Assembly: GCA_041662665.1 (NCBI GenBank)
Contig: JBAZSC010000004.1
Span: 76,464 to 136,403, forward strand
Direction of reading: 5' to 3'
Length of the DNA: 59,940 bases
Source: Patescibacteria group bacterium
Lineage (GTDB): Bacteria > Patescibacteriota > JABMPQ01 > JAQVVF01
How positions within the stretch are numbered: position 1 is the stretch's first letter; every line of letters begins with the position of its first letter. The notes under the pieces were generated by a model. The model made no database searches, was not told where the DNA came from, and worked only from the letters and a program-made list of their open reading frames with translations. Positions 37,554 to 41,541 of this stretch are shown piece after piece. Made by a program: the position numbers and the translations under genes.

Positions 37554-37626
37554 TGGACCTGAGCGGACTCGAACCGCTCACCTCCTGCTTGCAAAGCAGG
37601 CGCTCTACCAGATGAGCTACAGGCCC
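37554..37626 (-). tRNA. tRNA-Ala (anticodon UGC)
   Basis: Cloverleaf folds by hand: GGGCCTG/CAGGTCC acceptor with G3:U70, anticodon loop TTTGCAA, T-loop TTCGAGT; no encoded CCA. Confidence 0.9.
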
Positions 37627-37663
37627 AATATAATAACAAAATAACTAAATTAGAAATGAAAAA

Positions 37664-38275
37664 TTACTTTCTTTCTTCTGTCTTGCTTAACGTATCAGTC
37701 ATTTTTACGTATAAATAAACTAATAACACGCCAATTAATGCCCCACAAGTATTCATTAACAAATCATTTGGCGTATCAAAGCGATCTCCTAGTCTATTAT
37801 TGCTTAGAAAAAAACTTTCTGAATATTCTTCAATCTCGTACAAGACTCCAAGAAAACAAGCTGCAAAAAAGGCATAACTTCCAATCAAATATTTTTTAAA
37901 TTCAACTCTTCTTCTTTTTAATACAGCGCAAAGTATGAAGAATATTAATCCAGCAACTGAAGCTCCGCCTAAGAAATGAGCCATTTGATCATACCATGAA
38001 AATCTGCCATACCATTTAAAAATATCTCCAAATGCATCAATCAACACATTTCCTAATGGAAACAAGAATACAAAACTTGGAATAGTATAATTAAATTTCT
38101 TTTTACAATACCATAACACAAATTCTAAAGCAATCCAAACTACAATTGATGTCAAAGCTAATCCAAACCAGCTAAATTCAAGTTCAAAATGTAAGATGCC
38201 AAAAAGATTAGCTAGCTCAAAACAAGCAAGTGAAGCAAAAGCAATCCTTACAAACCACAGAATTATAATATTCAT
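37664..38275 (-). CDS. polytopic membrane protein (weak VanZ-like resemblance)
   Basis: Five to six hydrophobic helices; FDTPNDLLMNTCGALIGV C-terminal motif. Confidence 0.55.
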   Translation of the reverse strand: MNIIILWFVRIAFASLACFELANLFGILHFELEFSWFGLALTSIVVWIALEFVLWYCKKKFNYTIPSFVFLFPLGNVLIDAFGDIFKWYGRFSWYDQMAHFLGGASVAGLIFFILCAVLKRRRVEFKKYLIGSYAFFAACFLGVLYEIEEYSESFFLSNNRLGDRFDTPNDLLMNTCGALIGVLLVYLYVKMTDTLSKTEERK

Positions 38276-38284
38276 AATAATGAA

Positions 38285-38548
38285 TTATTGTAATCCGCCT
38301 CCAAATAAGCCTTTTAGCATATTTGGTAATGTATGTTGTAAAAAACCAGTCATGTATAATGTTGAAACAGCAGCAATTAAAACGCCCAGCAGTTGCCAGA
38401 ACAATCTTCCGCCACCAAATGTCCCAAAATATTTTTGAGCAAAGCTTGGACTTCCGACATTATTAATTAACCATTCAGATTTTAAAGTTACAAAAACTCC
38501 AATTGCAATACCTATTAATCCTAAAAATATTTGGCCGATTAAAGACAT
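38285..38548 (-). CDS. small membrane protein
   Basis: Two to three hydrophobic helices, backbone-like AT-rich codon usage. Confidence 0.5.
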   Translation of the reverse strand: MSLIGQIFLGLIGIAIGVFVTLKSEWLINNVGSPSFAQKYFGTFGGGRLFWQLLGVLIAAVSTLYMTGFLQHTLPNMLKGLFGGGLQ

Positions 38549-38551
38549 GAA

Positions 38552-38630
38552 ATAACATTTAACATTTAACTTTTAACAGTTAACTCGCTATTTATAGCGT
38601 TAATTGTTAAGTGTTAATAGTTAATTGTTT
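38552..38630. repeat. palindromic word repeat (TTAAC/GTTAA family)
   Basis: aacatttaacatttaacttttaacagttaactcgc tatttata gcgttaattgttaagtgttaatagttaattgtt. Confidence 0.75.
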
Positions 38631-38633
38631 ACC

Positions 38634-38710
38634 TGGTGGGCGCACTTAGATTCGAACTAAGGACCTCGTCATTATCAGTGACGCGCTCTAACCAACTGAG
38701 CTATGCGCCC
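38634..38710 (-). tRNA. tRNA-Ile (anticodon GAU), CCA encoded
   Basis: GGGCGCA/TGCGCCC acceptor, D-arm GCTC/GAGC, anticodon loop CTGATAA, T-arm CTTAG-TTCGAAT-CTAAG, ACCA end. Confidence 0.9.
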
Positions 38711-38858
38711 ATAAATAAATAACAAAATAACTAAATTTTAAATAACAAAATATCTTTTGCTTTCCTTACTATTTTAACATCAAAAAATATTTCTTTCAAG
38801 TCTTTATGTCCAAAAGTTTTAAAAAGTGCAATATGTGTGTGCACATTACCCAAGAATC

Positions 38859-38887
38859 TTGACAATCTGCTTGCCTTATTGTATCCT
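38859..38887 (+). promoter_or_regulatory. sigma70-like promoter (TTGACA-17-TATCCT)
   Basis: Upstream of 38938..39600. Confidence 0.45.
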
Positions 38888-38937
38888 GATTTAAACGTTC
38901 TTTCCGACAATTTCCTAGCCAGAGGAGGAGGAAAGCG

Positions 38938-39600
38938 ATGAGCAACAGAGAGCCAGAAATCACACTGCCAGTAGTCATTCAACGGGACTTTTTCACTTCT
39001 CTTTCCGACGATCAAGCTATTCAGATCTTGATTCCTATCATTGGCGAAAAAGAAGCTCGCGCTTATGTCCAGAAGTGCCGTTATTTTGCAATTGACCATT
39101 TCAACAACTACGAGGGTACAATCTTTTGGTTGGTTAAAGCTGGCTACACACTGAAACAGCATGCTTCCAAACTTGGTCCGTGCTACAAGAATTTCGATTA
39201 TTTACAGACCTGGAATTTCAACGATGAGCCAACTTTTGACAGTCTTGTTTTCTGGGTTCCCAGACTTGTTCCTGACGGCATTCGAAAAACAGCAAATGAA
39301 CAGTTGAATTATCTCGCCAGACTTAGCAAGAAGTACGATCTGCCAGCCGATCATCTTACTGATTTCGGCAGTGTCACCTTAAACAGCGGTCTCATTTTGA
39401 GCTACTTCAACCAGACAAAGGAACGAGTTCCTCCGGATCGGTTGTGGATCAGGACTTCTGCTCGCGGCTCCGATGGCAGTCGTTTCGACCTGGGCGACTT
39501 TGATGAGCGAGGCCTCTACTGCAGCGGCTACGATTTGGGTGGCGGTTTCGTTGACGATCTTGGCTGTTTCGCTCTAGGTATTGTAAAGCTCGCAGCATAA
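38938..39600 (+). CDS. orphan 220-aa protein, SD-led cassette inside the 16S/tRNA-Ile spacer
   Basis: GAGGAGGAGG 7 nt before ATG; highest GC of any CDS here by eye (3' end near 50%); hairpin terminator follows. Confidence 0.6.
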   Translation: MSNREPEITLPVVIQRDFFTSLSDDQAIQILIPIIGEKEARAYVQKCRYFAIDHFNNYEGTIFWLVKAGYTLKQHASKLGPCYKNFDYLQTWNFNDEPTFDSLVFWVPRLVPDGIRKTANEQLNYLARLSKKYDLPADHLTDFGSVTLNSGLILSYFNQTKERVPPDRLWIRTSARGSDGSRFDLGDFDERGLYCSGYDLGGGFVDDLGCFALGIVKLAA

Positions 39601-39623
39601 TTATTTAAATTTTTAGTTCTTTC

Positions 39624-39652
39624 AACTCTTGATGTATTTCAAGAGTTTTTTT
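39624..39652 (+). terminator. rho-independent terminator
   Basis: AACTCTTGA-N6-TCAAGAGTT then a T-run. Confidence 0.7.
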
Positions 39653-39657
39653 ATTTA

Positions 39658-39735
39658 GAGCTTCGGAACGTCGGAGCTTCGGAACGTCAGAACGTCAGAA
39701 CGTCCGACGATCCGATTTCCGACACTCCGAAGCTC
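39658..39735. repeat. palindromic word repeat (CTTCGGAACGTC family), GC-rich
   Basis: gagcttcggaacgtcggagcttcggaacgtcagaacgtcagaacgtccgacgatccgatttccgacactccgaagctc. Confidence 0.75.
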
Positions 39736-39925
39736 TAAAAACGAAAACCAGCGCTTTTACGCTGGTCAAAAATAATATCCAATATCTAATATCCGTAATA
39801 TTCGAAGATACTTTGATAATCAAAAAGTGATAAGAGGGTCGATTAATTCCTTACATAATGAAAATAAATTCATCTCGACAGATCAATAAAAATCCATAAG
39901 ACTTTCAGAGATCAATTCTCCCTAG

Positions 39926-41541
39926 AAAGGAGGTGATCCATCCACAGCTTCCGCTACGGATGCCTTGTTACGACTTCACCCTTCTCGCTGATCTCACCGT
40001 GGTTCCTCAAAAGAGGAGCTTCGGGTGCTATCAACTCGCCTGATGTGACGGGCGGTGTGTACAAGACCCGAGAACGTATTCACCGTAGTGTGCTGACCTA
40101 CGATTACTAGCGATTCCGACTTCATGAGGGCGAGTTTCAGCCCTCAATCTGAACTGAGGCCGCTTTTGTTGAGATTTGCACTGCCTTGCGGCTTAGCTTC
40201 TCTTTGTGTCCCGAAGGACTCTAGATAATTCTAGAACGGCCATTGTAGCACGTGTGTTGCCCAAGATGTCAAAGGGACGTGCTGACTTGACGTCATCCCC
40301 ACCTTCCTCCGACTATACGCCGGCAGTCTCCAAAGTAAAATATAACATTGGACAAGGGTTGCGCTCGTTAACGGACTTAACCGAACAGCTCACGCCACGA
40401 GCTGACGACAGCCATGCATCACCTGTCCTAACGTTCCTTGCGGCACATCTCGATTTCTCAAGACTTCGTTAGGCTTCAAATCTTGGTAAGGTTCTTCGCT
40501 TACTGTCGAATTAAACCACATGCTCCACCGCTTGTACGGGTCCCCGTCAATTCCTTTGAGTTTTAATCTTGCGATCGTACTCCCCAGGCGGGATACTTAA
40601 CGCGTTTGCTTCGACACAGAAAGGGTCGACTCTCCCTATGTCTAGTATCCATTGTTTACGGCGTGGACTACTGGGGTATCTAATCCCATTCGCTACCCAC
40701 GCTTTCGTCTCTCAGCGTCGGAAACAGACTAGCAAGACGCCTTCGCCACTGGAGTTCCCCCCGATATTAACGCATTTCATTGCTACACCGGGAGTTCCTC
40801 TTGCCTCTTCTGATCCCAAGTCTGCCAGTTTTAATTGCAGCCCTGATGTTGAGCACCAAGATTTAACAATTAACTTAACAAACCGCCTACAGACGCTTTA
40901 CGCCCAATAATTCCGGGTAACGCTTGCCATCCTCGTATTACCGCGACTGCTGGCACGAGGTTAGTCATGGCTTATTCGTATGGTACCTTCAACCCAGCAC
41001 ATTTTACTATTGACATTAGCATAACTTAACTAGAAATGACTATCTATCTGTATAACAAAATCATGTAAGTATCAACAGTAACATGTGCTGGACTTATTCC
41101 CACACAAAAGATCTTTACACCCCGAAGGGCTTCTTCGATCACGCGGCGTCGCTCCGTCATGGTTGCCCACATTGCGGAAGATTCTCGACTGCAGCCTCCC
41201 GTAGGAGTCCGGGCAGTGTCTCAGTCCCGATGGTGGGGGTCATCCTCTCAAACCCCCTACCCGTCATAGCCTTGGTAGGCTTTTACCCTGCCAACTAGCT
41301 GATAGGCCGTAGGCTCCTCTCAAAGCAATAGTTCTTGCGAAATATTTTTGAATGGGAATGACTTTCGTCCCCCCATTAGTATCAGATATTAGACCAGATT
41401 TCTCCGGCTTATGTCTGTCTTTGAGTCAGATTACCAACGTATTAGTACCCCATTTGCCACTAGTGAATAAATTCACTCGTACGACTTGCATGCCTAAAAC
41501 ACGCCGCCAGCGTTCACCCTGAGCCAGGATCAAACTCTCAA
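39926..41541 (-). rRNA. 16S ribosomal RNA (about 1.6 kb) with an AT-rich expansion in V3
   Basis: 5' AGAGTTTGATCCTGGCTCAG (41519-41538 rc), 515 region GTGCCAGCAGTCGCGGTAATAC, 3' ...GGATCACCTCCTTTCT; ends approximate to a few nt. Confidence 0.9.

Follow-up and report, generated by a model that had tools for sequence, protein, structure and literature searches.

Is a ribosomal RNA (rRNA) locus whose spacers are filled with protein genes an operon that is coming apart, or a layout that has long been stable? The question is raised by a 59,940-nt stretch of DNA from a Patescibacteria group bacterium (the window, C4:76464-136403, which reaches the end of contig C4 and whose positions serve as coordinates below). 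On its minus strand, Rfam and ARAGORN place the 16S rRNA gene, tRNA-Ile(GAU) and tRNA-Ala(UGC) in the order that the initial annotation of this DNA had described. As it had also reported, protein genes occupy both spacers. The 1215 nt between 16S and tRNA-Ile contain an open reading frame (ORF) on the plus strand, ORF B, and two same-strand ORFs, M1 and M2, lie between the tRNAs. That annotation concluded that an rrn operon had been caught in an intermediate state of disintegration. From gene positions, conservation, synteny and homologies, including the pattern of repeats in homologs of ORF B, which are what we observe directly, we reach a different answer. The locus is very probably a stable instance of the split rRNA layout already documented for the Candidate Phyla Radiation (CPR), with three predicted transcription units and one recently acquired foreign gene, and not an operon in mid-disintegration. 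The genes concerned are as follows.

39926..41545, minus strand: 16S rRNA gene, complete and the sole genomic copy (RF00177, 1400 bits, model positions 1-1533)
38938..39600, plus strand: ORF B, 220 aa, homolog of the variable (target) proteins of diversity-generating retroelements (DGRs)
38634..38710, minus strand: tRNA-Ile(GAU), CCA encoded, the only gene with a GAU anticodon in the genome
38285..38548, minus strand: M1, an 87-aa protein with two hydrophobic helices, conserved beside tRNA-Ile/tRNA-Ala
37664..38275, minus strand: M2, a 203-aa polytopic membrane protein, weakly like DUF2238 and VanZ
37553..37627, minus strand: tRNA-Ala(UGC), without an encoded CCA, the only gene with a UGC anticodon in the genome

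The rest of the rRNA genes lie far from this locus. The genome under study (G000; four contigs, 1.25 Mb, about 30% GC, 97.7% complete, not closed) has one copy each of 16S, 23S and 5S. Those of its relatives that carry names are metagenome-assembled genomes of Patescibacteria (CPR). Downstream of tRNA-Ala come a terminator-like hairpin, two PilB-N2-like ORFs, DUF4446, bactofilin and more genes, which agrees with the earlier description of cassettes and housekeeping genes in place of 23S. At least 37.5 kb behind tRNA-Ala in the window are free of any match to large-subunit (LSU) rRNA. Across the window Rfam gave zero LSU or 5S matches, and around the locus none even at E<=1. At that permissive threshold, the region 36000-42600 yielded only 16S, the two tRNAs and chance matches, by which a 23S remnant or other RNA beneath ORF B was ruled out. 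The search of the full assembly that the initial annotation had called for located the sole 23S and 5S on contig C1 (C1:103335-108005), behind a CYTH-like gene, tRNA-Arg and tRNA-Lys, and not in operon position beyond the window. Thus, the 23S-5S pair that directly follows the spacer tRNAs in a canonical rrn operon is elsewhere in G000. On contig C2 of congener G002 and on contig C27 of congener G001, the final 10 kb of the window are found next to the initial 8 kb of C1, with the same orientation. Because of this colinearity, the end of C4 appears to continue into the start of C1, and the 23S gene on the plus strand would therefore lie about 18.4 + 103.3 = 122 kb from the minus-strand 16S gene, facing away from it. 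The same geometry is found within a single contig of G002, where 16S(-) and 23S(+) are about 96 kb apart; upstream of 23S, both congeners are syntenic with G000. A replication origin between 16S and 23S was considered as the cause of their divergent orientation and rejected, since GC skew over C4 and C1 has no clear turning point.

Comparison with relatives, another check that the initial annotation had proposed, does not fit an intermediate state. All four genomes of the family that we compared (G000, its congeners G001 and G002, and G003 from a second genus) have the same order of 16S, tRNA-Ile, two membrane-protein genes, tRNA-Ala, DUF4446, bactofilin and a diacylglycerol-kinase-like gene, with 23S elsewhere. 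In G001-G003, the spacer from 16S to tRNA-Ile is only 220-290 nt and that from tRNA-Ile to tRNA-Ala about 1.0 kb. Because both congeners and a second genus share the layout, we regard it as old and stable. More broadly, 31 genomes were searched and rRNA spacing was compared in the 17, including G000, in which both genes were found. The 16S and 23S genes are 1.4 kb apart on one strand in a single genome (G030), 3.9-9.2 kb apart on one strand in five, 20-30 kb apart on one strand in two, about 100-120 kb apart on opposite strands in three (G000, G002 and G023), and on separate contigs in the remaining six. Most of the compared genomes keep the order 16S, tRNA-Ile (then tRNA-Ala), with spacers of 0.2-6 kb that hold protein genes. 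While tRNA-Ala directly precedes 23S in G016, G018 and G020, it stays with 16S and tRNA-Ile in the family of G000.

Protein genes in rRNA spacers have a precedent in Borrelia, where they lie within the long rrs-rrlA spacer. The Borrelia cluster consists of 16S, tRNA-Ala, tRNA-Ile in the opposite orientation and tandem 23S-5S (PMC4370689). It resembles our locus in having the two classical spacer tRNAs near 16S, a kilobase-long spacer and a 16S gene separated from 23S-5S, but it differs in that tRNA-Ala is followed by an inverted tRNA-Ile and that 23S-5S is nearby and duplicated, whereas in G000 tRNA-Ile precedes tRNA-Ala on one strand and 23S-5S is some 122 kb off. A closer parallel is found within the CPR. 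Patescibacteria are listed among clades with unlinked rRNA genes (Brewer et al., 10.1101/705046), and 27 of 34 circularised CPR genomes are described as unlinked (Lui et al. 2021, PMC8172020). The layout types given in the latter include tRNAs and protein genes in the spacers, as well as 16S and 23S on opposite strands; type E has 16S on the strand opposite to 23S-5S, and the spacer proteins mentioned are mainly homing endonucleases (PMC8172020). The genes of G000 are unlinked by the distance of Brewer et al. (>1500 bp) and by that of Lui et al. (>2000 bp or opposite strands), and from synteny they fall into type E. Single copies, a small genome, a distant 16S, a filled former spacer, opposite strands and a clade-wide pattern are all shared with these unlinked CPR genes, and we see no essential difference. 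What G000 adds are predicted unit boundaries, conservation at the family level and the identities of the spacer genes. The split locus is a well-resolved example of a documented CPR trait that is stable at the level of the family.

How, then, would a locus arranged in this way be expressed? We infer promoters, terminators, co-transcription and processing from sequence, and the signals suggest three units. The first would be 16S alone, transcribed from two tandem promoters, with a long stem of leader and trailer for excision by an RNase III-type enzyme and an intrinsic terminator directly behind that stem.

41665..41794, minus strand: two tandem promoter-like sites upstream of 16S (consensus scan)
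41564..41674, minus strand: 16S leader arm of a putative RNase III-type processing stem (RNAduplex)
39790..39921, minus strand: 16S trailer arm of the processing stem (RNAduplex)
39746..39767, minus strand: predicted intrinsic-terminator-like hairpin with U-run closing the 16S unit

The two promoter-like sites (TTGACA-17-TAAAAT at 41794-41766 and TTCAAA-18-TATAAT at 41694-41665) have counterparts at matching places in G001 (TTGACA-17-TAAGAT and TTAAAA-18-TATAAT), and the block 41821-39809 is 97% identical to that genome. Leader (41674-41564) and trailer (39921-39790) form a duplex of 80 pairs at -62.5 kcal/mol by RNAduplex; with a longer leader the duplex reaches -63.2 kcal/mol, compared to -43.2 +/- 4.8 for shuffled trailers. 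A gene for RNase III and the RNase P RNA are both encoded in G000. The hairpin that follows (39767-39746) has 9 pairs at -14.2 kcal/mol, and equally good folds arose in 0 of 200 shuffles. A hairpin with a U-run is found at the same place in G000, G001, G002 and G003, with a different stem sequence in each. Because the structure is kept in four genomes despite these differing stems, it can be argued to be under selection. The hairpin that the initial annotation had proposed as the end of 16S transcription is a good terminator candidate.

The second unit would run from its own promoter through tRNA-Ile(GAU), M1, M2 and tRNA-Ala(UGC) to a terminator and would thus be a mixed tRNA-mRNA unit. Its predicted boundaries are two.

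38771..38799, minus strand: promoter-like site for tRNA-Ile, TTGAAA-17-TAAAAT with an extended -10 TG (consensus scan)
37404..37420, minus strand: predicted terminator-like hairpin with T-run closing the unit

The block around the promoter-like site (38825-38775) is 89% identical in G001, and counterparts at the same place in G001 (TTGAAA-17-TATTAT) and G002 (TTGAAA-17-TAGAAT) both carry the TG. The genes between these boundaries share one strand and are tightly spaced, with gaps of 85, 9 and 36 nt for tRNA-Ile to M1, M1 to M2 and M2 to tRNA-Ala, respectively. A scan of the minus strand from 38634 to 37627 for terminators found none that was convincing, only one weak 6-pair hairpin within M1 (38400-38385) without a proper T-run. 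Tight spacing on one strand with no internal promoter or terminator is the arrangement expected of a mixed tRNA-mRNA operon, and the sequence is consistent with one. Terminator-like hairpins stand behind tRNA-Ala in G001 and G002 as well. The M2 protein matches DUF2238 and VanZ in Pfam below cut-off (E 8.5e-4 and 2.6e-3). Its gene is at the same place in G001, G003 and G010, the last from another family; the block from tRNA-Ile to tRNA-Ala of G002 aligns over its full length, and distant M2 homologs elsewhere are not adjacent to these tRNAs. If the unit is transcribed as predicted, the mRNAs of M1 and M2 would be released by tRNA-processing enzymes, that is, by RNase P on the 5' side of tRNA-Ala and by 3' trimming behind tRNA-Ile. 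The third unit, 23S-5S, would be on the opposite strand at a distance of about 122 kb.

Mixed operons of this kind are known from Escherichia coli, with secG-leuU and thrU-tyrU-glyT-thrT-tufB as examples. The resemblance lies in protein and tRNA genes on one strand, no signals between them, and mRNA ends made by tRNA-processing nucleases. In G000, unlike in E. coli, the two tRNAs that would flank the mRNA are those of the rRNA spacer, some relatives have the mRNA within a complete rRNA operon, and co-transcription is a prediction. Apart from this comparison, a 20-nt motif, AATTTAGTTATTTTGTTATT, occurs at 37632-37651 and 38718-38737, with an inverted copy at 37436-37455 behind a broken tRNA-Ala copy described below and further copies at C1:10647 and C1:10804. 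It sits 5-7 nt before tRNA-Ile, tRNA-Ala(UGC), tRNA-Met and tRNA-Val(GAC), and related AT-rich arrays with an 8-nt period precede about 15 of 46 tRNAs. The motif may be a promoter or leader element.

Several points weigh against the reading of a stable layout with three units. The join of C4 to C1, the distance of 122 kb and the opposite-strand geometry rest on synteny rather than on a closed assembly. The promoter scan yields 22 sites, compared to 14 +/- 3 in shuffles, as the DNA is AT-rich; because it finds so many, single promoter-like sites are weak evidence unless they are conserved. A run search returned six RNA runs, each with at most 7% of the sampled words, and in the two that were examined, matches are confined to conserved segments of 16S that come from other organisms, with none in the spacers. 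The structural likeness of ORF B to known proteins, discussed below, comes with fold scores (Z 8.4-8.8) in a range that the tool calls common. Finally, the U-run of the hairpin behind 16S is interrupted (UUUUCGUUUUU), and read-through past it is therefore possible.

This last point opens the alternative that fares best among those we considered. The hairpin could be leaky or serve only in processing, and 16S through tRNA-Ala could be largely one precursor, at least in the relatives that lack the insertion. In favor of such a precursor, 16S and tRNA-Ile are separated by the short spacers of G001-G003 noted above, and M1 lies inside compact 16S-Ile-M1-Ala-23S clusters in G081, G021 and G030, where co-transcription with rRNA is the simplest reading. 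Nevertheless, the promoter-like site with an extended -10 before tRNA-Ile is conserved in G000, G001 and G002, and the hairpin and U-run have kept their position while their sequence changed. Furthermore, in G000 a read-through transcript would have to cross 0.95 kb antisense, through a convergent and separately terminated gene. We consider a single precursor unlikely, and separate units for 16S and for the tRNAs with M1 and M2 remain the better account.

Units 1 and 2 as well as their order are inherited, being common to the whole family, and the association of M1 with these tRNAs is common across the phylum. M1 carries the conserved motifs FGGxR and LYMTG. It is present in 13 of the 16 searched genomes from the order, and in all 13 it is on the same strand and directly beside tRNA-Ala(UGC), tRNA-Ile(GAU) or both. 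This adjacency persists even where these tRNAs have left 16S. A profile search across the phylum found M1 in 104 of the 301 genomes sampled. In 66 of the 90 loci examined, a same-strand tRNA-Ile or tRNA-Ala gene lies no more than 1.5 kb away (tRNA-Ala in 61, tRNA-Ile in 42), and in relatives the gaps between M1 and the tRNAs are often only 2-40 nt. There is also a second recurrent setting of tRNA-Leu(GAG), tRNA-Val(UAC), M1 and tRNA-Ala(UGC) (L104, L106, L109, L112, L115 and L143), and M1 therefore travels with tRNA-Ala even away from tRNA-Ile and rRNA. As a separate observation, the reversed order of tRNA-Ala, M1 and tRNA-Ile on one strand occurs in L137 (G029 C3:30705-31480), L155 and L164. 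The ratio of nonsynonymous to synonymous substitution (dN/dS) relative to G002 is 0.09, which marks M1 as a protein-coding gene maintained by purifying selection. Pfam gave no match to it, its NCBIfam matches are insignificant (E 0.011 and worse, far below cut-offs), and public records label it hypothetical. A literature search found no published description of the family or its tRNA arrangement, and M1 is not named in the parts seen of Brewer et al. (10.1101/705046) and Lui et al. (PMC8172020).

These findings bear on the claim that the two membrane-protein genes break the operon. Because M1 resides next to these tRNAs across the phylum, and sometimes inside linked operons, M1 and M2 do not break the unit; M1 is instead an ancient resident. 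What was right in the original view is that 16S is separated from 23S-5S and that ORF B looks foreign. We tentatively put forward that Ile-M1-Ala, with M2 in the taxonomic order of G000, might be an ancient, phylum-wide expression module in which the M1 mRNA is cut from a stable-RNA precursor by tRNA-processing enzymes, an idea we hold at somewhat less than even odds. If it is true, production of the M1 protein would be coupled to that of ribosomes and of tRNA-Ile and tRNA-Ala, and in genomes with linked operons the precursor of the M1 mRNA would be the rRNA precursor itself. That an uncharacterised membrane protein of 80-90 aa is wedged between the rRNA-spacer tRNAs across much of the Patescibacteria points to expression that is possibly wired to stable-RNA synthesis, a link open to direct tests by metatranscriptomics or in Saccharibacteria that can be cultivated. 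Of the whole locus, it is the M1 module that deserves follow-up.

The second alternative is the original one, that the operon is in an ongoing intermediate stage of disintegration and was recently broken by the genes in its spacers. It draws on the growth of the locus in G000 relative to G001, which amounts to four extra insertions of 1-2 kb within 12 kb (43039-41821, 39809-38825, 37481-36252 and 34288-32157). The second of these holds ORF B. The others carry a membrane-anchored paralog pair (41821-43039), two PilB-N2-like paralogs (36252-37481), and orphans of 91 aa and 384 aa (32157-34288). At the 36252-37481 and 32157-34288 sites, G002 has different DNA, which suggests insertion hot spots and, along with the extra insertions, that the spacers are still being stretched. 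A scar behind tRNA-Ala, with a broken second 3' half, can be counted on the same side.

37460..37538, minus strand: broken second copy of the 3' part of tRNA-Ala, read from sequence and aligned with G001 and G002

Against ongoing disintegration, the whole family has 23S apart, 16S as a unit of its own and the Ile-M1-M2-Ala block, and M1 is next to these tRNAs phylum-wide. Moreover, the recent insertions are outside the predicted units, either past a terminator or in the gap from a terminator to the next promoter, and they break nothing that was still joined. Only the ORF of the 16S/Ile spacer and the cassettes after tRNA-Ala are species-specific additions to the layout. We therefore judge ongoing disintegration to be improbable. 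Under the reading of a stable split layout, new genes keep landing in the gaps between units and leave the units untouched, such that spacers grow between units and not through them.

The scar itself lies 13 nt behind the intact tRNA-Ala and ends in CCA. An AT hairpin separates its anticodon arm (37538-37513) from the remainder, which consists of T arm, acceptor and CCA (37483-37460). G001 and G002 encode CCA on tRNA-Ala, which the intact gene of G000 has lost. The scar looks like the trace of an old integration or duplication. An integrative element at tRNA-Ala was considered and rejected, as the duplicate is only 13 nt away and matches of the downstream ORFs are limited to the N-terminal part of T2SSE; the duplicate is best read as a remnant. 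Likewise, no shared flanking repeat was found that would make the four species-specific insertions one cassette system.

What remains is the foreign gene and its insertion, which lies exactly between the 16S terminator candidate and the promoter-like site of tRNA-Ile and is absent from G001-G003.

roughly 38830..39745, plus strand: species-specific insertion of about 0.95 kb, with promoter-like site, Shine-Dalgarno sequence, ORF B, terminator-like hairpin and palindromic element
39655..39735, no strand assigned: GC-rich palindromic element of 8-nt repeats at the 3' edge of the insertion

The initial annotation's account of ORF B as an opposite-strand, GC-rich gene with its own putative signals holds up. 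Its GC content is 46.5%, compared to about 30% for the genome; it has a strong Shine-Dalgarno leader (GAGGAGGAGG), a promoter-like TTGACA-17-TATCCT at 38859-38887, and a hairpin with a T-run at 39624-39647. The family is absent from the 30 relatives searched. It is small and well conserved, with homologs about 36-50% identical. In 185,579 species genomes it has 21 loci, most of them in Patescibacteria, and the GC content of the gene almost always exceeds that of its surroundings by 10-26 points. ORF B has no Pfam, PHROG or NCBIfam match, and a Foldseek search of the Protein Data Bank with its model returned nothing at E<=0.001. The AlphaFold2 model has a confidence (pLDDT) of 80, and its best folds are PvdO (Z 8.8), TvpA (Z 8.4), a paralog of formylglycine-generating enzyme (FGE; Z 6.8) and Mtd (Z 5.7). 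DGR variable proteins with the C-type-lectin/FGE fold include TvpA of Treponema (2y3c), Mtd of a Bordetella phage (1yu0) and TaqVP of Thermus (5vf4), and the modeled ORF B may belong to the same fold class. The link to DGRs rests mainly on sequence homologs. At four homolog loci, the last 110 nt or so of the gene recur 0.3-4.4 kb downstream as a pair of variable repeat and template repeat (VR/TR). Mismatches within the pairs fall at TR adenines in 20 of 21 cases in L061, 16 of 17 in L063, 15 of 16 in L054 and 15 of 21 in L060. The pairs differ almost only at TR adenines, and an RVT_1 reverse transcriptase lies downstream in both loci checked, L061 and L063 (E 1e-27 and 1e-21). We therefore take the family to be a DGR target. 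Each of these two loci has a complete DGR cassette (target gene of the ORF B family, small ORF, TR and RVT_1; L061 5896-8602 and L063 5857-8431), and the cassette of L061 sits directly behind tRNA-Thr and tRNA-Tyr.

In G000, by contrast, ORF B stands alone, with no template repeat, reverse transcriptase or accessory gene. The four contigs of the 97.7% complete genome hold no second copy of 39440-39610 and no match to RVT_1. We read ORF B, from its sequence, as a horizontally acquired and stranded DGR target gene. A foreign cassette would have inserted, in the opposite orientation, into the silent gap that separates the terminator of 16S from the promoter of tRNA-Ile, and it would either have shed its template repeat and reverse transcriptase or have arrived without them. 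A third alternative is that ORF B is still a working target, diversified in trans by an element elsewhere, such as an unassembled plasmid or phage. The complete cassettes of its homologs, the incomplete closure of the genome and an RVT_1 gene in congener G001 give this some footing, yet neither a TR-like copy of the 3' end nor a reverse transcriptase is found in the four contigs, and two DNA runs are without variant positions in 39440-39600 (a weak point, as contigs hide rare variants). Diversification in trans is therefore very doubtful. As a stranded copy, ORF B would show that pieces of DGRs spread among CPR genomes and survive without the diversifying machinery. Together with the association of M1 with tRNAs, a name for this GC-rich orphan ORF as a copy of a DGR target is the more useful by-product of the analysis.

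Two further features of the insertion deserve mention. ORF B was considered as part of an insertion that targets rRNA or tRNA genes, but this was set aside: a tRNA or 16S gene lies no more than about 2.5 kb away at about 6 of the 21 homolog loci, and most have none. The palindromic element at 39655-39735 consists of 8-nt units (GACGTTCC / GAAGCTCC) and folds into a stem of about 22 pairs. Partial copies of about 20-110 nt, mostly 75-93% identical, are found at about 20 other places on all four contigs, with clusters at C1:17.9-18.7 kb, 44.8-45.5 kb and 51.5-51.9 kb. Among the species-specific insertions of the window, the element accompanies only that of ORF B.

Last, the arrangement could be an artifact of assembly, as the initial annotation had cautioned. 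Contigs from two groundwater metagenome runs of different studies, one of which may be the source sample, match 36200-39943 and 41518-42100 with zero mismatches. They join the cassette behind tRNA-Ala to tRNA-Ala, tRNA-Ala to tRNA-Ile, tRNA-Ile to ORF B and ORF B to the 3' end of 16S, and overlapping contigs bridge the spacer insertion at both of its ends. While rRNA genes are often break or misjoin points in metagenome assemblies and the Logan contigs do end within 16S, a chimera of the 16S contig with unrelated sequence is very unlikely, because these metagenome contigs match, gene order on both flanks of 16S is colinear with G001, G002 and G003, and leader and trailer from opposite sides of 16S base-pair together.

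Insertions also occur within the rRNA genes themselves. The 23S gene of G000 spans 4.35 kb and has two insertions, each with an ORF for a LAGLIDADG-type homing endonuclease (L001 3536-3997 and 4885-5361). The 16S gene of G002 has an insertion of about 0.9 kb (L035 ~15823-16721) at the position that matches 40058 of the window, which is absent from G000 and G001.

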